Source: a virus
Taxonomy: Duplodnaviria; Caudoviricetes
Length of the DNA: 64,000 nucleotides
Direction: 5' to 3' (one strand)
IMG/VR virus record: IMGVR_UViG_3300032135_000003
Location: 66,948 to 130,947 of that record
Each line of letters starts with the position of its first letter. The first letter of the stretch is position 1. Below are positions 1,531 to 13,008 of this stretch, piece after piece. The notes beneath the pieces were generated by a model that made no database searches, was not told where the DNA came from, and worked only from the letters and a program-made list of their open reading frames with translations. Position numbers and translations under genes: made by a program.

Positions 1531-4500
1531 ATGAAAGATAACAGGACACTATCTTTAGGGAAACAAATGAACAGAGACTCATCTCCTTTTAATTTAAAGG
1601 AGACAGAGTATTCATTTGCACTTAACACAATGTTTGAGAGTGAGTCAGGAGACTCTTATAACCCCAAGAATGAGTATAGTAATATACTTGCTGTAAAGTT
1701 CTCTGAGGGTTTCAAGGTTGTAGGGCATAAAAATGATATTAATGAAGACAGAACCTTTTTCTTTTTAGCCAATCCTCTTACAAATGTTTCTGAAATTGGG
1801 TATATTAAAAACTCTACTAGGAATGTAGTAGTAGACGATTCTATACCTTTAGAGGAACAAACACAAGAACCTTATTCCCAATTTGTAATTTTATTAAATG
1901 ACAGTTTATCAAAATGTTTAAACCTTGACGTAGACTTTCCAGTTAAGAAAATAGAGATAAAAAAAGAAAAACTTGGAACTACTTTATACTGGGCAGATAA
2001 TAAAAACCCTGACAGGTCTTTTGTAGTAGAAAAAGTAAAAGGTTATATAAACACTGGTATTGTTAACTGTGACAAACTAAGAATAGATAAAAAACACATT
2101 TTACCTACTATTACCCCTGTATCTATTGAGGCAGGAGGACAGTTAGAAAAAGGGGTATATGAATTCCTTATTACCTACTGTGATAAATTAGGTAATGAGA
2201 TTGCTGAGTATGTATCTATCACAAATCCTGTTCATATTTTTAATAATAATGACAGGGTTATTGCAACTACAGAACTTAATGACAAAACAAATCAAGCAAT
2301 TAAATTATTAATTGAAGGTTTAGACACTCAGTACAAGTATTACAAAGTTGCAATCATTCAGAAGCTCTCAGACAACACTTCTTACTTTTCTGAGGGGATA
2401 CACCCAATTAACGACAAAGAAATCATAATATCCTCTGTACAGGATAAAAAACGCATAGATTTAAACAAGATACTTGCATCAAAAACCACGTATGTAAAAT
2501 CAGAGGGGGTTACTTCTTCTAATGGGTATTTATTTAGATATGGGTTAACGGCAGAAAAAGAATGGAACCTTCAGCCCATAACAAATCTACTTGGGGCTTT
2601 TGTAAGATGGCAAACAGTTGAGGCAAAAGAAGATTTATATGAAAGAGGTGAAGCCAGCTCTTTATTTAAAGGATATTACAGGGATGAAGTATATCCATTA
2701 TCCTGGAGAATAAAGACGAATACTGGTTATGTATCAGCCAACTTTCCCTTTATATCAAGACCAGCAACAGAGTTTATAGGTGAAGATCAAAAAGTAGTTA
2801 ATGAAAACGCTGTTATAGAAAACCTTGACACTAAATCTGTAAATACCTTAAACCCTAATTGTTCTCAGGAAGAACGAAATAAATACTGGCAATTTTATAA
2901 CACAGCACACGATGTAGAAAGGTGTACTGATTTCCAAGGAAATACTACTATAGTAACCCAACCCGTAAATAAGTTTTGTATTAGTGAAAATTTTAGTTCT
3001 TTAGAAGATGTATCTATTTATTTAGATATTTCTGAGGTTCCAAATTTTACTACTTTTACAGCGTACTTGGAAGAATTTGGGAATAATCTTACTGCAAATT
3101 TGCCCAATGATTATAATGAGGAAATATATAATAATGCAGAATTACAAAGCATACTCACAGATGAAAGAAAAGATGAAAATTGTAGTATTAATTATAGGGA
3201 TAATTGCATTGACCCAACCCTTATACAAAGTAATATATTTTTAGGAGATATAGAGAATGAAAAAATAAATCCTTCAGCCAAAGATAAAAAAGATTATGAA
3301 CTTTCCAAAGTTGTTCAGTTTTCCTATATTCACGATGTAAACACAGAAGGAAGAGGAAAAGTGGACGAGGAGTTTAAAGCAGAATTCTCAACTAACGAAC
3401 CCTACCCTTTTTCAAGAGCATCAACAACTAACGCAGAAAGATGTGTATCTTCAATCAACTCTGCACAGGTAAGCGAAGCTAATGAGAATAGCAGTGGACT
3501 TGTAATGCAATATTACGCTGATTTACAACAATCAAATCTACAAGAGTCCACAGTCTCAGAAATTGTAGGAGCAGGTTTTACAAATAAAATACATAAAGGA
3601 GCTATTTGGATCAAAAGTTCTATAAAAGATACAGGGAAAGCTATCATTGAAGTAACTAAATGGAAAAAGGCAAACTTTAACGATTTATTCAGTAGCGCAA
3701 AAGGAGATTTTTTTAACACAATAGGGAACCACAATGTAAGGGTTTCCGTTTACAAAGGAAGATGTACTAACTTAGAATTTGTAAAAGCTTTTATAGTAGA
3801 TGTTAGGGAAGGAGCTTTACTTACAGGAGAGGGAGAACCTATATTAGAGTCTGAGGTAGGAAGCGAAGATTTTTATATAGTCATAGACCCCCCAATAGTT
3901 CAAACTCCTGCTGTTAAGGGCTATGTAACAGCAGTTATAAACGGTGTATTTGGACTAGAGGTTCGGGCAGAAGAGTATAAATCTGCAACTATACATTTTG
4001 ATAAGATAAGTGTAAGCAAACAACAAAAATATGAATTAAGTTGTGACTTTGAAGTACCTATTTTTGACGAGTGTGAGCCACAACCTTATAAAAGTGGTAA
4101 ATTTTCTTACTGGGAGTCAATAGAAAAATACCCAGATAATAAAGAATTATTTGACAGCAGTACCTTAGAAATAGATACTATTGATATAGATGACAGTATA
4201 AAAGTAGAGTTTGAGAAGTTTTTTGTAGCTAGTAAAATAAACAATAAGTATCTATTAAAGCAGGACACAAACTTTGCGAATAAACCTATAAGGCATTTTA
4301 AGTTTCCAGATTTTAATGTGGCTCCATTTATGTCCACAAACTTAATAGTACCTTTTAGCCAATCTTATATATACCCATTAGGTGTAACCATATCTAAAAA
4401 AGCGGTAAATTCTTTCTTGGATATAGCGGTCAAAAATAAATTAATATCTCAAGAACAAAGAGACTCTATTACCAGTTTTGAAATGTTCAGGGGTGACAGG

Positions 4501-7500
4501 AGAGTTAATAAGAGTATATTAGGAAAAGGTATTGCCTATGATATGTATGATTATGAGGAGAAAGTAACAGGAGATAAAGTACTTTTTTCAAACTTTCCAT
4601 TTAATGATTTAGGGGACAACAAACTATCTTACGCAGATGAGAAAAGAACATCTTTTATAAAACACCCTTATAAAGGAAACAGGAACAACAAATTTACATT
4701 TCATTCCCCAGAGTATGACTACTATGATTTAAACATAGGGGCAGAAACTAAAATAGAAGCCTTCCAATATGGAACTTCAAGAGGTAATTTTGTAGATGTT
4801 GAAGATCACCCAACTTGGGTAATATTAGGAGAACGAGCGTATAAAAAGGCTAAGGATTTAGCAATTTTAGAGTTTGCGTTAGAAACTGCAATACGTTTAG
4901 CCGAAAACTTAATACAAGCTTCTCAAAACTATTGGTTTATTGGAGGATTAGGTTCAACAGGAGGTAATCCTTGGGGAGCTATAGGGGCTACAGGGTTTGC
5001 CCTTGGGCTCTCAGGCTTTGAAGCATTGGTAAATGTAGTCCCTGTTGTAGGAAGATACAGGTATGAATGGTTAAAAATATTCAGAGATTTAGGACAACCA
5101 GAAAACTTTGCAACTCAGTATGTAGCAGAGGGATTTTATAACTATGCAGAACCTAACTATTGGTATGAAGGTGGAAGTAAAAGCTCCTTAGGAAACAGTC
5201 TTAGAGCAATTTCAACTGGAAAAGAATTAAAAGAAGGACGTTACACTTTTACGGAAAAAACAGGAGAACAACTTAAAGTTAACAACTTAGACAGGGAAAA
5301 AAGCTTACTCCTAACCTTTGGAAATGACTATTTATTAGAGTACCCCGCAGGGTATAAAACCTATGACAATGGAAATGAAGATTCTTATGGAAGCAGTAGG
5401 TCTATACAATCGGACAGTGGTGTTTGCATGGCTGGGAAAAGCCCTGAGATAAAGAAAAACATTGCTTCTCCATATATGAGCTTAAAGAACTACGTACCAT
5501 TTCAATATGGCTCTATCAGCTCTATTAAGTGGTTACAGGCTTCTAAAAGTGTTAATCTTGATGGGGACAATACTTGTTACAGTATTTTTGGAGGAGATAT
5601 ATTTATTTCAAGGTACACTTTAAAAAGGAAAGTACCTTTATTTACAGATACAGCCTTTGGACTTGCACCATTAACACCATATAACTATTATAGAAACAGT
5701 AATTTAGGATATACAAGATTTTACTGTAATTACGAGTTAGGAAATGAAAAAACTCTTGGAGATATCTTATTTCCTGATTTTGAAAGTGAGTATGTTTTTG
5801 ATTGTCAAACTGCATCTTCTGGGTCTTATGTGAAGCCGCCATCAAAAATGTACTTGAATTATTACGGGATTCCTAATTTCCTTGTAGAATCAGAACTTAA
5901 TTTAAATTTAAGGTATGGTAAGAAAGAACCAAGAAATAATTTTTATCCAGAAGTGGGAGACTTTGTTGACTGGACACAAGAAACTAATGTACCCATAAGA
6001 GAACCAAACAGACTCTATTACAATAATGTTTATTCTTCTACTGTATCAGAGGTTTCTTACAGGACTTTACCTGATTACTACTCTAAAGAAGAGTTTGACA
6101 TCTTATATGACTCACCTAATGGAGTGATATATTCCATGCAGGACACTTCTGAGAATGATTTAACTGATCCTTGGGCAATATTTAGACCGTTAGATTATTA
6201 CCAATTTCCATCTTCTTATGGAAAACTTTTGGACTTGAAAGGAATAGAGAGCGCACAGGTACTTGGAAGATTTGAAAACACTTCTGTTATCTTTAATGCT
6301 GTTAACCAATATAAAGATGCTCAGGACGCAGCTACAAGGGAGCTTGGAACAGGTGGTATATTTGCAGCCAGACCTATGGAGTTTAGTAATACCGAACTTG
6401 GGTATGGGGGAACAGGCACTTATCAAATTGTGAGTAATGAGTATGGGCATTTTTATCCCGATACAGACAGGGGACAGGTATTTCAAGCAGGAGCAAAAAG
6501 CCTGCAAGAGATATCTTCGATAGTTGGAGGTAAGGCAGTTGGAATGAAAGCTTGGTTTAAAGAGCATTTGCCTTTTAAAATTAAAAATTCTTTAGTTGAG
6601 AACTATGAATTTATAGATACAGATAATGCCTTGAATGGTATTGGTATAACAATGGGGTGGGACGCTAAATTTGATAGGGTTTTACTTACTAAAATTGATT
6701 ACATACCTTTACAGGAAATGTACTACTGTGGAAGTAAGTTCTTAGACTTTAGCTGCAACTCAATATCTTATTGTGAATACGTTAATAAAGAATTAACTAT
6801 TCAAAATTATTTAGATCAAGGGTATAGGTATTTAGAACAAGACTGCCAATTAATATTCCAAAAAGTAACAGAGAGTTGTACATACAGTTTTAATTTTTGC
6901 ACATTCCCTGATAAAGAAACAAAAGAACAAGTATTAATAAGTACAGGATTTAATTTTAGTAAACAAGTAGATTGTGTTTTAGAATATGAAAAAGTTGAGG
7001 AGATTTGTGATGAAAATTCAAAACAATCTGAGATACAAGCACTTTTAACCGCAGGGTATGTAGAAAGTAGTAGGGTTGAATGCGAAATAACTTACTCAAA
7101 AAGCACTGATACTTGTACTTTTGTAAATCAACAAACGCAAATAAATGCTTTGTTAGCAGATGGATACACTTATAAAGAGGACACAGACTGTAGAAAAGTC
7201 TTTGAAAAAGCAGATGTAATACCTGCACCACCAAGTAATATAGCCAATGACGACTTTGTAGAGGTAGCTCAGGGGCAATTAGTTTCTTTCAACGTTATTA
7301 CAAATGACGTAAGTGGAACAAGTCAAGCTCTTTCCATACATTCATTTACACAGCCTCTTTATGGAACACTAACTAAAGTAAATAGCACTACTTTCAGATA
7401 TACCCATAATGGGACAGATAATTTTGCAGACACTTTTAACTATACAGCCACAAATGACAATGGAGAAACAAACATAGCAACTGTATCTATCTCAATAAGT

Positions 7501-8550
7501 TTTGAACTGGCTTGGAGACCAACACAACCTTATTGTTTAGCTTATGAGCCTCCTTATTATCAACTTACCGCCCATTTTGAGGGTATTAGAAGCGATAAAC
7601 CTAATGATAGGTATGCAGTAAGCACAGTTTCAGGATATACACCACCAGACGGTATTTTACTACAGAGAACTAAGGAAGATGATACAGTAAGAGAAACTAA
7701 TATTGATAATAACACTAAGTTAACACCTTCTTTTCAAAACAATGATAAGGCATGGTCTACTATCCCTTTAGATAAATTAAGATCTTTAAAAGCGAGGTTC
7801 CACATGATAAAAGGACTTTTATTTAATCCAAGTCAAAATACACCTAACTTAGAAGTCTTAGACCTACGTGGAAACAGGACGGAGTTATTAGACTTAGATA
7901 TGACAAATTGTATTAAGTTAAAAGAGCTTGTTATTAGTGAGTGCTATATTGATTCTATATCCTTACCGCCTACTGATATAAATGATACTAATAATTATTT
8001 TACTTGGGCTTATTTAGGGGATTACAATGTAGCTGATAGGAGACAAATGCCGCCTGTACAAGTAGTAGACTCAGTTACCGAGAGAGCATACTACTCTAAA
8101 GTAGCCACGGGACAAGTTTCTACTGGTAGTACTAAAAGGTTGGCTACGGATACAGGAAATGGCACTTTAGTTATTAATGGAATCAATATGCACTATGATT
8201 TAGTGAACAGCAAAAATTGGAATGTAAACCATTTATCGGTAGAAGGGTTTTCTAAAAGTTTTGGCTCAAGTGCAGCAGGGAGCCTATCTTTAGATTTTAT
8301 GACTTCACACCATAATTATAATATAGTGATTGAAAACGCCACTTGGCTAACTTGTACAAACCCTACTGGTAATTATTCGTTAGAAGTACAAACGCTTAAC
8401 TTTACAGCGACTGATAACAATACAGGATCACCGAGAAGTACAGTAATTAAATTTAGAAAAATAAAAGAGTATCCAAGAACAACCAGTCAAATTAATGAAG
8501 ATGGGGACGAGTACCATCATGCAGCTTGGATAACAATAACACAACCTTAA
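1531..8550 (+). CDS. Tail stabilisation/muzzle protein (P22 gp10-like), N-terminal core fused to Cys repeats, Ig-like (Big_9), LRR-like and BACON-like domains
   Basis: N-terminal MNRDSSP..YSFALN, GYYRDEVY, IRHFKFPD, FGGDIFISR, GITMGWDAKFDRVLLTK motifs of crAss-like Tstab; then four ~33-aa Cys repeats, an ANDD...DTFNYT Ig-like domain, LEVLDLRGN and C-terminal WL...N.G..R...ITITQ. Confidence 0.75.
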   Translation: MKDNRTLSLGKQMNRDSSPFNLKETEYSFALNTMFESESGDSYNPKNEYSNILAVKFSEGFKVVGHKNDINEDRTFFFLANPLTNVSEIGYIKNSTRNVVVDDSIPLEEQTQEPYSQFVILLNDSLSKCLNLDVDFPVKKIEIKKEKLGTTLYWADNKNPDRSFVVEKVKGYINTGIVNCDKLRIDKKHILPTITPVSIEAGGQLEKGVYEFLITYCDKLGNEIAEYVSITNPVHIFNNNDRVIATTELNDKTNQAIKLLIEGLDTQYKYYKVAIIQKLSDNTSYFSEGIHPINDKEIIISSVQDKKRIDLNKILASKTTYVKSEGVTSSNGYLFRYGLTAEKEWNLQPITNLLGAFVRWQTVEAKEDLYERGEASSLFKGYYRDEVYPLSWRIKTNTGYVSANFPFISRPATEFIGEDQKVVNENAVIENLDTKSVNTLNPNCSQEERNKYWQFYNTAHDVERCTDFQGNTTIVTQPVNKFCISENFSSLEDVSIYLDISEVPNFTTFTAYLEEFGNNLTANLPNDYNEEIYNNAELQSILTDERKDENCSINYRDNCIDPTLIQSNIFLGDIENEKINPSAKDKKDYELSKVVQFSYIHDVNTEGRGKVDEEFKAEFSTNEPYPFSRASTTNAERCVSSINSAQVSEANENSSGLVMQYYADLQQSNLQESTVSEIVGAGFTNKIHKGAIWIKSSIKDTGKAIIEVTKWKKANFNDLFSSAKGDFFNTIGNHNVRVSVYKGRCTNLEFVKAFIVDVREGALLTGEGEPILESEVGSEDFYIVIDPPIVQTPAVKGYVTAVINGVFGLEVRAEEYKSATIHFDKISVSKQQKYELSCDFEVPIFDECEPQPYKSGKFSYWESIEKYPDNKELFDSSTLEIDTIDIDDSIKVEFEKFFVASKINNKYLLKQDTNFANKPIRHFKFPDFNVAPFMSTNLIVPFSQSYIYPLGVTISKKAVNSFLDIAVKNKLISQEQRDSITSFEMFRGDRRVNKSILGKGIAYDMYDYEEKVTGDKVLFSNFPFNDLGDNKLSYADEKRTSFIKHPYKGNRNNKFTFHSPEYDYYDLNIGAETKIEAFQYGTSRGNFVDVEDHPTWVILGERAYKKAKDLAILEFALETAIRLAENLIQASQNYWFIGGLGSTGGNPWGAIGATGFALGLSGFEALVNVVPVVGRYRYEWLKIFRDLGQPENFATQYVAEGFYNYAEPNYWYEGGSKSSLGNSLRAISTGKELKEGRYTFTEKTGEQLKVNNLDREKSLLLTFGNDYLLEYPAGYKTYDNGNEDSYGSSRSIQSDSGVCMAGKSPEIKKNIASPYMSLKNYVPFQYGSISSIKWLQASKSVNLDGDNTCYSIFGGDIFISRYTLKRKVPLFTDTAFGLAPLTPYNYYRNSNLGYTRFYCNYELGNEKTLGDILFPDFESEYVFDCQTASSGSYVKPPSKMYLNYYGIPNFLVESELNLNLRYGKKEPRNNFYPEVGDFVDWTQETNVPIREPNRLYYNNVYSSTVSEVSYRTLPDYYSKEEFDILYDSPNGVIYSMQDTSENDLTDPWAIFRPLDYYQFPSSYGKLLDLKGIESAQVLGRFENTSVIFNAVNQYKDAQDAATRELGTGGIFAARPMEFSNTELGYGGTGTYQIVSNEYGHFYPDTDRGQVFQAGAKSLQEISSIVGGKAVGMKAWFKEHLPFKIKNSLVENYEFIDTDNALNGIGITMGWDAKFDRVLLTKIDYIPLQEMYYCGSKFLDFSCNSISYCEYVNKELTIQNYLDQGYRYLEQDCQLIFQKVTESCTYSFNFCTFPDKETKEQVLISTGFNFSKQVDCVLEYEKVEEICDENSKQSEIQALLTAGYVESSRVECEITYSKSTDTCTFVNQQTQINALLADGYTYKEDTDCRKVFEKADVIPAPPSNIANDDFVEVAQGQLVSFNVITNDVSGTSQALSIHSFTQPLYGTLTKVNSTTFRYTHNGTDNFADTFNYTATNDNGETNIATVSISISFELAWRPTQPYCLAYEPPYYQLTAHFEGIRSDKPNDRYAVSTVSGYTPPDGILLQRTKEDDTVRETNIDNNTKLTPSFQNNDKAWSTIPLDKLRSLKARFHMIKGLLFNPSQNTPNLEVLDLRGNRTELLDLDMTNCIKLKELVISECYIDSISLPPTDINDTNNYFTWAYLGDYNVADRRQMPPVQVVDSVTERAYYSKVATGQVSTGSTKRLATDTGNGTLVINGINMHYDLVNSKNWNVNHLSVEGFSKSFGSSAAGSLSLDFMTSHHNYNIVIENATWLTCTNPTGNYSLEVQTLNFTATDNNTGSPRSTVIKFRKIKEYPRTTSQINEDGDEYHHAAWITITQP
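6772..7212 (+). repeat. Four tandem ~33-aa Cys-bracketed repeats (C-x4-K-x3-I-x6-GY-x6-7-C-x3-F-x-K)
   Basis: CEYVNKELTIQNYLDQGYRYLEQDCQLIFQK; CTFPDKETKEQVLISTGFNFSKQVDCVLEYEK; CDENSKQSEIQALLTAGYVESSRVECEITYSK; CTFVNQQTQINALLADGYTYKEDTDCRKVFEK. Confidence 0.85.
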
Positions 8551-8551
8551 C

Positions 8552-9643
8552 ATGACAAACACAGGATATAAAGCCTATACCACATTAGAACAATACAATG
8601 TTTACTCTGGAAACGCAACTGGGGTGACAAAACCTAACACTGTAGGTGATGCAGATTATGTAGCCCCAGTTTTGGATGAAGTATATTGCCCTATAGAAAG
8701 TACAATTAATTGGATTGCAGGGGGTTTTTATAATAGTAGTGAGGAGAACGTATTAAAATCTACAGACGGTATAAACTGGGATTATAGTAGAATACCAACT
8801 TTGTTTGATATTTATGACATCTCTTTTGTCAATGGGGAGTGGTTTGCTGTTGGGGCTTCTCAGGATAATGTTGGAGGAGGTTTTAATAATAAAGTAATGA
8901 GGTCTTTTGACACGATTACTTGGGCTGAGGCAGTAATACCACAAATAAGTAGTGTGCAAAGTATAAATTATGCCAATGGCATTTATGTAGCCACAGGAAG
9001 AGCTGACTCTAGTGGATTAAACACAATTGCTACCTCTGTAGATGGAGTTAACTGGACAGGAAGAGGGATAGGAGGACTAGATATAAATTCAATGGGGGTT
9101 ACTTTTGCAAATGGAATATGGGTTGCCTATGGAGAAAGTGATGCCCCAGACAGAGGGTCATTAGCATACTCTACAGATGCAATAAATTGGACACCAACGT
9201 TTAACTACTACTACGACAAAGGATTTACCTTTGGGTATGACGCTTTTTACAATGGAAGTTACTGGATATCAACTGGACTTAAAGGAGGCAGTAATACAAA
9301 TGTTGTTGGAAAATCTTCTGATGGAATAAACTGGACACCCTATAGCACAGGGGCTACAGTAGATAATACAGGTAGAAGATTAGGATATTTTAATAATTTA
9401 TGGGTGTTAGGAGGAAAAGGAAGTTTTGAAATTGCAACTTCTACTAATGGGCAAAGTTGGACTGGAAGATTAAATCAAGACTTAATTGATATTAGAGATT
9501 TCGAGTATAATGACAACAAAATAATTTCAGTAGGGGGAAAATCAGAATCAGTTGGTAAAATATATTCAAGCACAAATGCAACAACTTGGACAGAGTTAGC
9601 CCAAACCAGATTAGGACTTTACACAATAGCTATTAGAAAATAA
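8552..9643 (+). CDS. Asp-box/BNR-repeat beta-propeller, putative receptor-binding or tail accessory protein
   Basis: Repeated S-x-D-G-x-x-W motifs (STDGINW, SFDTITW, SVDGVNW, STDAINW, SSDGINW, STNGQSW, STNATTW) after a short N-terminal NTGYKAYTTLEQY...PDY/ADYVAPV...CP-type module. Confidence 0.7.
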   Translation: MTNTGYKAYTTLEQYNVYSGNATGVTKPNTVGDADYVAPVLDEVYCPIESTINWIAGGFYNSSEENVLKSTDGINWDYSRIPTLFDIYDISFVNGEWFAVGASQDNVGGGFNNKVMRSFDTITWAEAVIPQISSVQSINYANGIYVATGRADSSGLNTIATSVDGVNWTGRGIGGLDINSMGVTFANGIWVAYGESDAPDRGSLAYSTDAINWTPTFNYYYDKGFTFGYDAFYNGSYWISTGLKGGSNTNVVGKSSDGINWTPYSTGATVDNTGRRLGYFNNLWVLGGKGSFEIATSTNGQSWTGRLNQDLIDIRDFEYNDNKIISVGGKSESVGKIYSSTNATTWTELAQTRLGLYTIAIRK

Positions 9644-9647
9644 AAAT

Positions 9648-12032
9648 ATGGCAATAGTTACAATAAATGCAGAGGTAGTTACTACCATTGAAACTGCAAC
9701 CATCACTTTAGACAAGAAAACAACTACTGAGAAAGCCTATATAACAGGTATTTCGGTAGCCTCCCCTGTAGGAGTAGATGCCAAGAACGATATTATTGCT
9801 GAATATCAAGGAAGAAATTATACTTATGATGGAGAAATAGACTGCTCTTTATACTTTTCAAAAGACAGTAATACTTGTGACTATGACGCTAAAGACCAAG
9901 AAATTCAAACTTTATTAAGTAACGGTTTTGAGATAGCATCTACGGTGGACTGTACGCTTACTTTCACTAAGACAGGAGAAATAGACCAAATCTTAGTATT
10001 AGACCCGGTTGTTACTACTGTTTATGAAGTAATTGCAGGAGTTTCAGATTATGCAGAGGAGCCACAGGTAATTGTAAATGGAACAACAGTTGTAGCTACG
10101 GAAGGAAGTATGCTTACAGATGGTTACATTTATGAGGGAGTTATAGACTGTAGAAAAGTATGGAGTAAAGAAATATCATTGTGCGAATTTGACAATAAAG
10201 TAAAAACCATTGCAGAGTATGTAGGAAAAGGGTATGAATTAGTATTAGATGCAAATTGTGAATTAAGCTTTACAGGTACTTTTAGTAAGTGCGACTATTT
10301 AGAAAAAGAGCTTTTAATTAAAAATTATGAGGTTGATGGATATACTTTATTAGAAGAACAAAACTGTAAACTACACTTTCAAAAAAATATAGAAAGTATT
10401 ACAAATCAAACAGACGTGTACGCCTTTTTTGATACAACCTCTATGAGGTTTCAAGATGGAATAGATGCAGCAGCAACTTTACAGATTTGGTTTTCTAAAT
10501 ATCAACAAGATAATCCAGACTATGAGGGTAATTTATACATAATCCCTATTTACTATGAAAGGTATGTAGACTATTTAGATATAATTAAAAAAGGAACTGG
10601 GGTAGGTAAAGTTATTCCAAGCAGACCTACTGTAGGTAATGCTGCGTTTAATGTTTATGGTAACGCTGATTGGATAAAAGAAGTAGGGGTATACCCACCT
10701 AACTTTGATTATATTACAACTCAAAGTACTAACACAAGTTGGACACCACCTACGGATGTTTTAATGTTAGCTTTTATGGACGAAGCAAACCCAGACTATC
10801 ATAAAAATAAATCAAATAGTTTAGAGAACCCTACCGCAGCTTATAATGAGGATTTAATAAGATTTAAAACTATTTTGGGGGAATTTAACTTCTTTAAGGC
10901 AGTCCTTTATCCTATTGTACAGCAACTAGAAGGTAATGGAGGAGCCCTTATCCTACAGTCTATGGCTGCAATAAAAGGGAAAGTACTAACTCAAAGTGAG
11001 ATAGATAGTACAGACACTCTCGTAGACGTAAACCCCTTACTTACGAGTAACCCTTATACAGACGGGTTAAATAAATATGGGTGGATAGGTGTATATGACA
11101 AAACTTCCCCAGCCGCAAATGTTTTTAACTCAACAGGTTTTGGGGAAGAGTTAAACAAGATAATCCTCTCAGGGGTAGAAACAGACTCTCAGAAGGAGGA
11201 TATTTATATTGATGGCACTTTCACTGAATATACTGATGATGTGGTTGTAAAAGGCGTAAATAAGGTTAAGAAAGAATATGTATATTTAGAGGGCTGTGAA
11301 ATACCCCTTGAAGAAGGAGATTATTTTAAAGATGCCTCATTTACTGTAGGATACTCACCTATTACAGGGTCTTGGATATCGTACTATTCTTTTATTCCTA
11401 ATTATTACATAAACCAAACTGACCATTTTAAGACAGGAAAAAACAGTGAGGGAACACTTTGGTCACATTTACTCACAAACAAAAGTTTCCAAGTATTCTA
11501 CGGGAAAAAAGAACCATGGATTATTGACCTTCCAGTAAAAGAACAGTATGTAAATAAGACTTTAAAAGATATTTCCTATTATTTAGATGCTAAAAAGAAT
11601 TCAGGACAGTATGATTATTCTGAATTGAGAAATGAAGGGTTTAATAAAGCTTGGGTCTACAACAACAGGACAAATTCTGGGGAACTAAACCTAATACCTA
11701 GTACAGGACTGCTATCTTTATTATCACAGTATCCAAATATGCTTAGCCCAACACAACAGGAAATATTATATTCTGATACAAGAGGAAAACACAGGTTCAA
11801 CTATTTCTTTGACCGTGTTAAAAATGATATGTCTAACGAGCCAATATGGAAGTGGGATTTAAATCAAATTCACAAAGAGTTAAACCCAGACGCATTGAGT
11901 TTTACAAGTAAGCCCACTTTAGAGTATATAAGAGGAGACTGGTTCTCAATTAGGTTACAACAAGATATTAGAACTGACCTTAGATATGAGTTCAAGTGGT
12001 TAGAATCCGCAGAAACCATAATCAACCCGTAA
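9648..12032 (+). CDS. Cys repeats, vWA-like domain and C-terminal part of the tail stabilisation/muzzle protein
   Basis: Five copies of the same Cys repeat as ORF 1531-8550; DVYAFFDTTSM resembles a vWA/MIDAS strand; C-terminal FKDASFTVGYSPITGSWISYYSFIPNYY...FNKAWVYN...IRGDW resembles the crAss Tstab C-terminus. Confidence 0.65.
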   Translation: MAIVTINAEVVTTIETATITLDKKTTTEKAYITGISVASPVGVDAKNDIIAEYQGRNYTYDGEIDCSLYFSKDSNTCDYDAKDQEIQTLLSNGFEIASTVDCTLTFTKTGEIDQILVLDPVVTTVYEVIAGVSDYAEEPQVIVNGTTVVATEGSMLTDGYIYEGVIDCRKVWSKEISLCEFDNKVKTIAEYVGKGYELVLDANCELSFTGTFSKCDYLEKELLIKNYEVDGYTLLEEQNCKLHFQKNIESITNQTDVYAFFDTTSMRFQDGIDAAATLQIWFSKYQQDNPDYEGNLYIIPIYYERYVDYLDIIKKGTGVGKVIPSRPTVGNAAFNVYGNADWIKEVGVYPPNFDYITTQSTNTSWTPPTDVLMLAFMDEANPDYHKNKSNSLENPTAAYNEDLIRFKTILGEFNFFKAVLYPIVQQLEGNGGALILQSMAAIKGKVLTQSEIDSTDTLVDVNPLLTSNPYTDGLNKYGWIGVYDKTSPAANVFNSTGFGEELNKIILSGVETDSQKEDIYIDGTFTEYTDDVVVKGVNKVKKEYVYLEGCEIPLEEGDYFKDASFTVGYSPITGSWISYYSFIPNYYINQTDHFKTGKNSEGTLWSHLLTNKSFQVFYGKKEPWIIDLPVKEQYVNKTLKDISYYLDAKKNSGQYDYSELRNEGFNKAWVYNNRTNSGELNLIPSTGLLSLLSQYPNMLSPTQQEILYSDTRGKHRFNYFFDRVKNDMSNEPIWKWDLNQIHKELNPDALSFTSKPTLEYIRGDWFSIRLQQDIRTDLRYEFKWLESAETIINP

Positions 12033-12040
12033 CTAATGTA

Positions 12041-12072
12041 TTTGTCAATAGACAGGTAATATTGTATATTCG
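12041..12072 (+). promoter_or_regulatory. Bacteroidota sigma70-type promoter (TTTG-N20-TATATTCG)
   Basis: -33 TTTG at 12041-12044 and -7 variant TAnnTTCG at 12065-12072, in the intergenic gap before the GH73 gene. Confidence 0.65.
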
Positions 12073-12099
12073 TAGAAATTTTGAGTAATAAATTTTTCA

Positions 12100-13008
12100 A
12101 TGGCATCAACGTATAAAGAAGCATCTAAAAAGAATAAAGCAGCAGGATTAGGAGAAAAACCTGATAATGTCAGTGTTGAAAGCTGGAATAAAGCTTTAGA
12201 CCTTTATAAAATGGCTGAGAGTAAGGGAGATGCCTACCCCGAGTTAACAGTTGCTCAGGCCATATTAGAAACTGGCTGGTTTAAAAGTCCATCTGGAAAC
12301 CATAATTATTTTGGTCAAAAGGCTACGAATAGTCAAGCTGGGACTTCATACAATACTAAAGAAGTTTCTAACGGTTCTTCGTATAATACTTCAAGTAGAT
12401 TTAGGGATTACTCTAATTTAGGTGAGGCAGTAGACGACAGGATGAAAAAGTGGGGCTCTAAATATAAAGATGCGGCTAATGTAGAGGAAGCTTTATATAG
12501 TATATGGAGTTATGACGAGGAGAAAGGACAAGGAGTAGGATATGCCACTGATGACAAGTATGATGAAAAAATAATTAATATACTTGGACAAATAGGCACA
12601 CCAGTAGAAAAGGCTTATAAAGATAAATTTGGCTCATTAACTTATGCAGGAGCTACCCCACCAACACAAACTGAGGTAGTAGATGAGAAAGCTTTTCAAG
12701 AAAAAGAAGTTGACAAAACCGCAGTAGCTTCAAACCAAGACAGATTAAATCTTCAACTCCTAGAACAAAATCAGGAAATACTTACAAAACTCAACACACA
12801 AGAAGCTGAGAAAGAAGCAAGCAACAAAGCTGCAATAGCACAACAGAATTTAGACAGGAAAGTAAGTGAGAAAAACTTCTTAAAAGAACTTATTATGAGC
12901 AGTGGTGTTAAAACCATGGAAGCTCCTAAAAGGAACAGTCAAGACTATCCTGAACCTAATTCTCCTGGATACCCTAATTACTTTCAAGATGGGGGAAAAT
13001 ATAAATAA
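12100..13008 (+). CDS. Virion-associated peptidoglycan hydrolase, GH73/FlgJ-like glucosaminidase
   Basis: AQAILETGW...NYFGQKA...FRDY...GYATDDKY catalytic motifs; C-terminal coiled coil ending in FQDGG. Confidence 0.85.
   Translation: MASTYKEASKKNKAAGLGEKPDNVSVESWNKALDLYKMAESKGDAYPELTVAQAILETGWFKSPSGNHNYFGQKATNSQAGTSYNTKEVSNGSSYNTSSRFRDYSNLGEAVDDRMKKWGSKYKDAANVEEALYSIWSYDEEKGQGVGYATDDKYDEKIINILGQIGTPVEKAYKDKFGSLTYAGATPPTQTEVVDEKAFQEKEVDKTAVASNQDRLNLQLLEQNQEILTKLNTQEAEKEASNKAAIAQQNLDRKVSEKNFLKELIMSSGVKTMEAPKRNSQDYPEPNSPGYPNYFQDGGKYK

Follow-up and report, generated by a model that had tools for sequence, protein, structure and literature searches.

Muzzles and nozzles of described phages

The muzzle of the Bacteroides phage crAss001 is one chain of 1371 aa (gp44, PDB 7QOK/7QOL), encoded after tail ring protein 1 (R1, gp43). 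Bayfield et al. 2023 (PMC10172136) describe variation in muzzle length through insertions, which they map to IG2 and the crass domain. In the Cellulophaga phage phi4:1, the muzzle homologue gp042 is likewise one protein (2289 aa), and is the cultured member of phrog_37948. A T7-type nozzle divided into two proteins is described in the Pseudomonas podophage A1002, where gp42 (nozzle-base) and gp39 (nozzle-rope) rebuild the platform and propeller via strand complementation, and gp80-like fibre genes lie between the gp42 and gp39 genes (PMC13730344, 2026).

Division of the muzzle gene

In the window (the whole stretch of 64,000 nucleotides of brine phage DNA analysed here; all features below lie on the + strand), a muzzle of the crAss-like family is encoded by two open reading frames, an N-half of 2339 aa (1531-8550) and a C-half of 794 aa (9648-12032). 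A single profile spans both, as expected from the original prediction of a muzzle gene split in two: in a profile search of phrog_37948 (2289 positions), aa 12-1788 of the N-half (P0001) match profile positions 13-1789 (E=0) and aa 209-784 of the C-half (P0003) match positions 1744-2282 (E 5e-102), the same profile to which the unsplit gp042 of phi4:1 belongs. The N-half carries the first three quarters of a crAss-like muzzle (core aa 1-1744, nt 1531-6762), followed by a repeat array and an adhesin tail, and the C-half carries the remainder. Between them lies a gene for a beta-propeller protein; the three genes occupy three different frames, the N-half and propeller frames both end in TAA, with the next ATG lying 1 nt beyond the first stop and 4 nt beyond the second. 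The one polypeptide per subunit of gp44-type muzzles is replaced here by two, and this split is conserved in the clade to which this phage belongs. Purifying selection acts on both halves: dN/dS is 0.024 in the N-half core (versus a relative of 93% identity) and 0.042 in the C-half core (aa 250-794), compared with 0.037 in the neighbouring lysin gene.

Identification as a muzzle rests on the upstream gene and on three matches to gp44. The R1 gene (658-1527; Pfam CrAss_Ring_1, 49.3 bits, cut-off 27) lies directly upstream of the N-half, as it does in the relative L008 and in the gene order of crAss001, and therefore the next gene (1531-8550) is identified as the muzzle. When an alignment of N-halves is compared with gp44 by hhalign, aa 10-254 pair with residues 10-249 (probability 82%, E 1e-5), the region of ring joining, propeller blades 1-2 and IG1. 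The model of N-half aa 1520-1724 (pLDDT 64) has gp44 1025-1200 as its top match, with a modest Z of 7.4 that is little higher than the Z of about 6 reached by generic propellers. The model of C-half aa 619-791 matches gp44 1251-1371 (Z 11.3, with an rmsd of 1.9 across 120 aa; Foldseek E 2e-6), whereas by sequence alone the C-half resembles gp44 weakly (hhalign E 0.054). Because these matches are collinear, with gp44 10-249 and 1025-1200 in the N-half and 1251-1371 in the C-half, the break falls within the beta-propeller of the muzzle.

The C-half ends in a universal muzzle C-terminal core (11298-12029), comprising the end of the propeller together with the C-terminus, which is recognised from homologue positions and the structural match to gp44; its last ~240 aa are the extreme C-terminus in most of the best 150 of 836 matches, mainly proteins of 1900-2600 aa. 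Homology had been predicted to resume at about position 11320, which marks the start of the region that every crAss-like group shares (from aa ~551); a restart at nt ~11300 holds only in comparison with distant relatives, and with phi4:1-type relatives it restarts at aa ~209-250 (nt ~10270-10390). The most conserved stretch of the C-half, aa 548-619, is modelled with low confidence, which is compatible with, rather than proof of, a need for a partner chain.

Conservation of the split and comparison with fused relatives

The split is kept across a clade at 53-88% identity in independent contigs. Seven clade members have a C-half covered over its full length (783-795 aa), and there are five further N-halves of 2034-2249 aa, on separate JGI/Logan contigs. 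The clade members L007, L008, P0187 and P0188 possess the two genes, the repeat arrays and a Big_9 domain, but neither the leucine-rich repeats (LRR) nor the propeller gene that the window has. The fission predates the LRR/BACON/propeller cassette, since there are clade members that are split without it, and the suggestion that insertion of the cassette caused the split is not supported as written. It had been proposed that two genes in all relatives, regardless of the cassette, would speak against the insertion; this is nearly the situation within the clade, but more distant relatives are fused.

In most crAss-like relatives the muzzle is encoded by one gene. Such fused single genes include phi4:1 gp042 and the 'muzzle protein' of csAssE-Sib. 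The closest cultured homologue, gp042 of phi4:1 (Lightbulbvirus, with phi17:2), is 37% identical over C-half aa 210-790. It shares with the window the flanking genes, the vWA domain and one copy of a mini-domain, but is a single polypeptide with that one unit, without the Ig/LRR/BACON tail and without genes lodged in it. The annotation of gp042 records its detection by MS/MS in virions.

Compared with crAss001 gp44, the likeness consists in the position after ring protein 1 and the N-terminal, pre-break and C-terminal matches; the differences are that one chain of 1371 aa is replaced by two genes (2339 and 794 aa) with one or more others between them, and that repeat arrays, a vWA domain and adhesin-type domains are added ~170 residues from the gp44 C-terminus. 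This insertion site differs from the sites in IG2 and the crass domain of the muzzles described with crAss001 (PMC10172136). The original reading as a homologue of the muzzle, with its break at a site prone to insertion, is supported.

Repeat arrays and vWA domain

Four Cys-bearing mini-domain units of ~35 aa (N1-N4, 6763-7209; 52.7-56.6 bits each with the unit HMM) adjoin the end of the N-half core and have positional orthologues in L006, L007 and L008. Five units (C1-C5, 9780-10385) were found by the same HMM in the C-half, three of them strong and two degenerate (C1 and C3); an AF2 model predicts five helix-plus-hairpin units at aa 41-248, with a low-confidence insert of ~45 aa between C2 and C3. 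C5 and N1 are reciprocal best paralogue matches, and the units have positional orthologues across the split clade. Fused relatives have a single unit at this site, within 64-68 aa between two flanking motifs, versus four plus five here. A Cys repeat flanking both sides had been noted from the start, and no copy was found outside the two arrays in the 131-kb genome.

The C-half opens with a leader (9648-9767), consisting of a conserved N-terminal beta-strand, MAIVTINA[ED]V, and then a variable strand; strands are predicted at aa 16-33. Column conservation is 0.81 in its first 10 aa, versus 0.52 at aa 23-45 and 0.84 in the C-terminal core. The heptamers at 7471 and 9645, earlier read as a duplicated junction strand, do exist (13/21 bases identical), but their similarity is at the level of chance: local alignment of the Ig C-terminus with the C-half N-terminus scores 21 versus a shuffle mean of 21.5 +/- 4.2 (p ~0.53), and a duplication was rejected in favour of an ordinary beta-strand pattern.

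Behind the array lies a predicted vWA-fold domain (10392-11177, C-half aa 249-510; VIA-align Z 9.3-9.7 to VWF A1 and integrin I domains, pLDDT ~88). It is common to phi4:1-type fused muzzles and missing in crAss001 and epsilon-type muzzles. The MIDAS motif D-x-S-x-S is absent from it, the first strand ending in D-T-T-S-M (aa 262-266), with T in third and M in fifth position.

An exchangeable cassette of putative adhesins

The sequence inserted at the break resembles adhesin and glycan-binding domains, as had been predicted. A Big_9 bacterial Ig-like domain (7231-7491; Pfam PF17963, 42.1 bits, cut-off 23.6) shares 94% DNA identity with a 183-aa gene that stands by itself in L006. The C-terminal tail of the N-half (7513-8547) is a putative LRR and BACON region: both domains are below the Pfam gathering thresholds (LRR_4, 19.9 bits versus 27; BACON, 24.5 versus 25), and a language-model feature search of the Atlas relates the tail at 0.94 to Bacteroidota LRR+BACON clusters. 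This tail is specific to the variant in the window, being missing in L006 and in contigs that join 7544 to 8561. The gene between the halves (8552-9643, 363 aa) has the seven S/T-x-D/N-G/A-x-x-W boxes of a BNR/Asp-box propeller, and its Atlas model (pTM 0.78; TM 0.74 to DUF6242 propellers) points to a BNR/DUF6242/Ycf48-like beta-propeller; it has no Pfam match at E<=0.1.

These modules lie in a mosaic hypervariable region (7063-10128), defined by blastn breakpoints versus L006, a relative of 88-95% identity whose flanks are 93-95% identical but which has different modules between those positions, including, between the halves, a GP4-gp80-like fibre gene (PF23140, E 1e-24) and an Ig protein gene. 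Contig joints (7062>7237, 7544>8561, 8697>9645 and 9743>10129) occur in runs that also hold the form in the window; no contig was found to join 7471 to 9645, the junction named with the original prediction. Both cassette forms are present in the same brine metagenome runs at shifting ratios (depth 575 versus 334 in X2, 32 versus 50 in X9), and the depth of the flanks approximates the sum of the two. The alternative offered with the original prediction, an exchangeable cassette, is strongly supported by this mosaic and by the co-occurrence of the two forms.

Phage tails exchange receptor-binding proteins modularly, with a conserved N-terminal anchor and a variable C-terminal domain. The cassette resembles such systems in being mosaic between near-identical genomes, and the propeller gene resembles them in having a conserved N-terminal anchor (nt 8552-8708, the first ~50 aa, 86% DNA identity to its L006 paralogue) but a divergent body (no blastn match to L006, dN 0.58). 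The exchange site differs in position: rather than a separate fibre locus, it occupies an essential gene of the tail tip, which has been opened into two.

The break lies at a site already tolerant of insertion, as it holds one mini-domain and the vWA domain in phi4:1-type fused relatives. In the split clade the mini-domain has multiplied into two arrays, four units after the N-half core and five behind the leader strand of the C-half, which would form an arm projecting from the muzzle. Judging from domain types, the unattached tail in which the N-half ends (Ig, followed by LRR and BACON) may be a receptor-binding module, as may the products of the genes lodged between the halves (the BNR propeller here; the GP4-gp80-like fibre and the Ig protein in the relative). 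Opening of the chain at the break would allow modules to be gained, lost or swapped by recombination with the core undisturbed, the outcome being a host-range cassette.

Alternative explanations

Conserved fission of the nozzle-type tail muzzle, a subunit of two chains and a host-range cassette at the break together make up the explanation that we consider likely. It is improbable that the C-half is instead an independent fibre-like protein (leader, repeats and vWA) with a captured muzzle C-terminal anchor, the N-half alone being the muzzle body and the two proteins being neighbours in the tail with no shared folded domain. The unit-plus-vWA module does occur in a non-muzzle cadherin-repeat protein on another crass-like contig, several proteins of 750-1400 aa match only in this module, and aa 619-791 fold confidently alone in the model; however, the fused relatives carry exactly these segments on a single polypeptide, collinearly with gp44 (1025-1200, followed by 1251-1371), and therefore the N-half alone would leave the propeller incomplete. 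Furthermore, the model gives no independent fold for aa 548-619, which are strongly conserved, and constraint is equally strong on both halves.

The tight packing of the genes, with gaps of 1 nt and 4 nt, and the stop-codon recoding and introns for which crAss-like phages are known (PMC12386605) might suggest that expression yields a full-length muzzle after all, whether through frameshifting, readthrough, an intron or a split intein, but this is very unlikely given the two TAA stops, the three frames and the complete propeller gene between the halves. The frame offset between the halves also differs among relatives (-1 in L007, +1 in L008), the C-half starts with a conserved ATG and leader, positions 6000-12500 have no Rfam match, and profile and Pfam searches found no intein or endonuclease domain in the open reading frames. 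Still harder to credit is an artefact of assembly or sequencing, or a decaying pseudogene: the window is part of a metagenome-assembled viral contig (86% complete), but the same architecture at 53-88% identity is found in independent contigs, 7413-9689 is reproduced exactly by contigs of several runs, and dN/dS is 0.02-0.04 in both cores.

Proposed assembly from two chains

Under the explanation of a conserved fission, the tail tip of this brine phage must be built from two proteins. From the N-half would come the end that joins the ring, the greater part of the beta-propeller and the distal domains, while the C-half would complete the propeller and provide the C-terminus. The functional subunit would be a heterodimer, kept together because each chain fills in the propeller of the other, with six copies of each chain by analogy with crAss001. 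The arms of the two chains (N-half aa 1728-1998 and C-half aa 1-256), modelled as a complex, gave an ipSAE of 0.51 (median of three runs; best control 0.00), with partner pLDDT of at least 68 and agreement between runs in at least 85% of contacts. The ipSAE mark is reached by 58/80 solved complexes and 2/110 mismatches, and values at or below 0.60 include only 7/80 solved complexes together with both passing mismatches; at this level the model is weakly suggestive of pairing between the arrays.

The closest precedent for assembly in trans is the split nozzle of A1002, in which fibre genes also lie between the two parts and the C-terminal propeller/platform piece is likewise extended at its N-terminus, by a long stretch that includes an Ig-like domain. 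A GP4-gp80-like fibre gene between the halves is a trait that L006 shares with A1002; the genome of the window has no match to PF23140. In A1002 the gene order is reversed, with the C-part first, and the rope has no sequence relation to the proteins in the window. In the window, the extension consists of a helix-hairpin repeat array and vWA, and, unlike in A1002, the N-half also has an array. Strand complementation is described for A1002, whereas assembly here would follow from the collinear mapping of the two halves to gp44.

A more speculative possibility, which we rate as rather doubtful, is that leader strand and mini-domain array constitute a general docking grammar, by which the N- and C-arrays would zip into a two-chain arm re-joining the propeller, and proteins with leader and unit, such as the 183-aa Ig protein of L006, would daisy-chain onto it; crAss-like phages would thereby gain a platform, sited on the muzzle itself, into which receptor-binding modules could be plugged. 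The gene for this Ig protein of L006 opens with a leader similar to that of the C-half (score 43 versus 24 +/- 4.7, p ~0.004).

The muzzle gene is divided between two genes

The muzzle gene of this phage (an IMG/VR virus, 130,947 bp, 86% complete) is divided, as originally predicted, into an N-half (P0001, 1531-8550, 2339 aa) and a C-half (P0003, 9648-12032, 794 aa), with a beta-propeller gene between them (P0002, 8552-9643, 363 aa), all three on the plus strand, tightly packed and each in its own frame. A single PHROG, phrog_37948 (2289 profile positions), spans both halves: residues 12-1788 of the N-half match positions 13-1789 (E = 0), and residues 209-784 of the C-half match positions 1744-2282 (E = 5e-102). 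The cultured member of this family is gp042 of Cellulophaga phage phi4:1, a virion protein that forms one chain of 2289 aa and has the same neighbouring genes; the muzzle protein of csAssE-Sib, an epsilon crAss-like phage, is likewise one chain, of 2257 aa. The C-half has 836 relatives in an exhaustive search. Among the 150 best of these, most are proteins of 1900-2600 aa that end in a counterpart of the last ~240 residues of the C-half, and thus a single chain is the norm. No report of a split muzzle was found in the crAss-phage literature searched; split nozzles, modular receptor-binding proteins and muzzle insertions are already known.

The two products together are the homolog of gp44, the crAss001 muzzle protein. 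The gene upstream of the N-half (658-1527) encodes crAss ring protein 1, and in crAss001 gp43 (R1) is followed by gp44. The N-half profile (aa 10-254) aligns to gp44 residues 10-249 (probability 82%, E = 1e-5); the AlphaFold model of the end of the N-half core (aa 1441-1745, pLDDT 64) matches gp44 1025-1200 best among PDB entries (Z = 7.4), ahead of generic propellers and other podophage nozzles (Z ~6); and the C-half model (pLDDT 72.5) superimposes on gp44 1251-1371 (Z = 11.3, rmsd 1.9 Å, 120 residues). By sequence, the C-half matches gp44 weakly (BLASTP E = 0.91; hhalign E = 0.054), phmmer found nothing among PDB sequences for either half, the A1 profile gave only a spurious Fab match in the PDB (E = 0.37), and Megablast of window positions 1-25000 against phages gave none. 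In gp44, a ring-joining domain is combined with a propeller of seven blades; IG1, IG2 and the crass domain are insertions that extend as far as residue ~1021 (PMC10172136). Given this layout and the model matches, the break maps near gp44 residue 1200, within the C-terminal propeller part, and the second gene encodes the last ~170 gp44-equivalent residues.

Repeat units and domains at the break

In fused relatives, the motifs [TS]KxDYxP[LIV] and F.TTSM are 64-68 residues apart, the length of one small unit. Here, in agreement with the original prediction, a Cys-bearing repeat of ~35 aa is present on both sides of the break, as four copies after the N-half core (6763-7209, plus strand) and five in the C-half (9780-10385, plus strand; three strong, two degenerate), with no further copies elsewhere in the genome. 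The unit, modelled as a helix followed by a beta-hairpin, has two cysteines in most copies, and the copies are positional orthologs across relatives. Units N1 and C5 are mutual best paralog matches, the pattern expected of an ancestral unit whose duplicates came to lie on either side of the break. This helix-hairpin mini-domain is previously undescribed and open to structural study.

The C-half units are followed by a vWA-fold domain (aa 249-510, Z ~9.5) in which the canonical MIDAS motif was not found, by a strongly conserved segment without a confident fold alone (aa 548-619), and by a confident C-terminal core. This segment, the most conserved sequence of the C-half (YF.DASFT..YSP..GSWISYYSF...; 11289-11504), is also the one with the poorest AlphaFold model in the isolated chain. 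The muzzle core was proposed to resume at ~11320, which is correct relative to distant crAss-like groups only; relative to phi4:1-type relatives, homology resumes at ~10270-10390. In another crass-like contig, downstream of MCP and a ring 3/4-like gene, unit and vWA domain lie together within a cadherin-repeat protein of 891 aa in which the muzzle C-terminus is absent (L011:9326-12001), and thus the module evidently moves between tail proteins. P0013-P0018 and P0031/32 were dropped as independent C-halves, being likely other tail proteins that share only this module (36-40% coverage), as in L011.

Conservation and age of the split

Six other C-halves from separate contigs (783-795 aa) are 53-88% identical to this one over their full length and share its start, MAIVTINA[ED]V. 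The five N-halves found on separate contigs have 2034-2249 aa. Two relatives (L007 and L008) have an N-half consisting of the core, four units, Big_9 and one more Ig/BACON-like domain, and a C-half that begins 1-2 nt later; both lack the LRR region and the propeller gene. Thus, the LRR/BACON/propeller material is not the cause of the split, contrary to the idea that insertion of an adhesin cassette had broken the gene; the split, which these relatives conserve, is older than that cassette. Restoration of a full-length muzzle by recoding, an intron or an intein is unlikely, because the internal stops of P0001 and P0002 are both TAA (the next ATG following 1 nt and 4 nt on), the frame offset is not the same in L007 as in L008, and there was no Rfam match within 6000-12500 and no intein match. 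Both muzzle cores are under strong purifying selection, with dN/dS relative to the closest relative of 0.024 (N) and 0.042 (C), compared to 0.037 for the neighbouring glucosaminidase gene. Searches for related loci yielded none with P0003 alone, one distant viral locus with the clade alignment, and only the L006-type contig again among metagenome contigs.

Exchange of the cassette between the halves

The cassette is exchangeable, as had been offered as an alternative to assembly of the halves in trans. A relative with the same split (L006) has DNA 93% identical to the window as far as 7062 and, starting at 10129, 95% identical, with only islands of identity between: Big_9 (7237-7544, 94%), the start of the propeller gene (8552-8708; ~160 nt, ~50 aa; 86% identical to the L006 paralog) and the C-half leader (77%). 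L006 has a divergent propeller, no LRR+BACON, an N-half with additional units and a ~400-aa tail (no Pfam match), a 137-aa GP4-gp80-like fibre gene (PF23140, E = 1e-24), and a separate 183-aa gene (L006:3122-3673) composed of a leader resembling that of the C-half (p ~0.004), an N4-orthologous Cys unit, and a Big_9 domain whose DNA is ~94% identical to that of the window at 7237-7544. The 183-aa gene marks a second fission, within the repeat array. The propeller protein of the window, which has no Pfam or PHROGs match, follows the anchor-plus-variable-head pattern usual for receptor-binding proteins. Beyond its first ~50 aa, it has diverged from the L006 paralog past blastn detection.

Both cassette versions occur in the same samples, as seen in contigs of public brine-metagenome runs. 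Contig joints fall exactly at the L006 breakpoints (7062>7237, 7544>8561, 8697>9645, 9743>10129), and these L006-type joints were the only ones seen, the suggested 7471-to-9645 joint being absent from contigs. The depth ratio of the two versions varies by run (575:334 in X2, perhaps the source sample of the window; 32:50 in X9, which like X13 has no such flag), and flank depth approximates the sum of the two. Strong holders of window 5000-12500 are all labelled brine metagenomes, and among the listed runs that contain the sequence none is catalogued as RNA. Across this interval in runs X2, X9 and X13, clustered synonymous-looking SNPs at about one-third of depth separate the two co-occurring strains outside the cassette. 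The GC content of the cassette (0.32-0.40, versus 0.29-0.40 in the flanks) has no clear anomaly.

Proposed assembly and possible function of a two-protein muzzle

Both heptamers of a supposed duplicated junction strand exist, but their similarity is at the level of shuffled sequences (p ~0.53). The first 10 residues of the C-half are nearly as conserved as the core (0.81 versus 0.84), followed by a variable stretch (aa 23-45, 0.52); this conserved leader and its counterpart in the L006 183-aa gene suggest a docking strand. The two chains would complete one propeller and together constitute each muzzle subunit, the repeat arrays would build an arm where insertions are tolerated, and the open chain end and lodged genes would bear receptor-binding modules, for which the candidates are the Ig domain, the LRR+BACON region (resembling Bacteroidota surface proteins) and the BNR/DUF6242-type propeller with its conserved anchor. 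A two-arm complex prediction (ipSAE 0.51, best control 0.00, partner pLDDT at least 68, contact agreement at least 85%) weakly supports pairing of the N-half and C-half arms.

Complementation of two proteins exists in podophages: the split nozzle of phage A1002 has been solved, and gp80-like fibre genes lie between its two nozzle genes (PMC13730344). The present lineage would be a second, independent two-protein nozzle. No other tail part of crAss-like phages is as conserved, or as poorly understood, as the muzzle, and host recognition by these phages is largely an open question; a muzzle gene opened exactly where adhesin-type modules swap points to the muzzle rim as a site of host recognition, and natural variants that share the same brines, with almost no differences outside the cassette, offer a ready-made host-range comparison.

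Neighbouring tail genes

Directly after the C-half is a glucosaminidase-domain gene (12100-13008, 66 bits), where L007 has an 846-aa SLT-domain gene; thus, the tail lysin has also been exchanged. The gut phage csAssE-Sib (L002:1-5756) has two TnpB/IS605-type genes and a BACON 'tail protein' just upstream of its single-chain muzzle gene.
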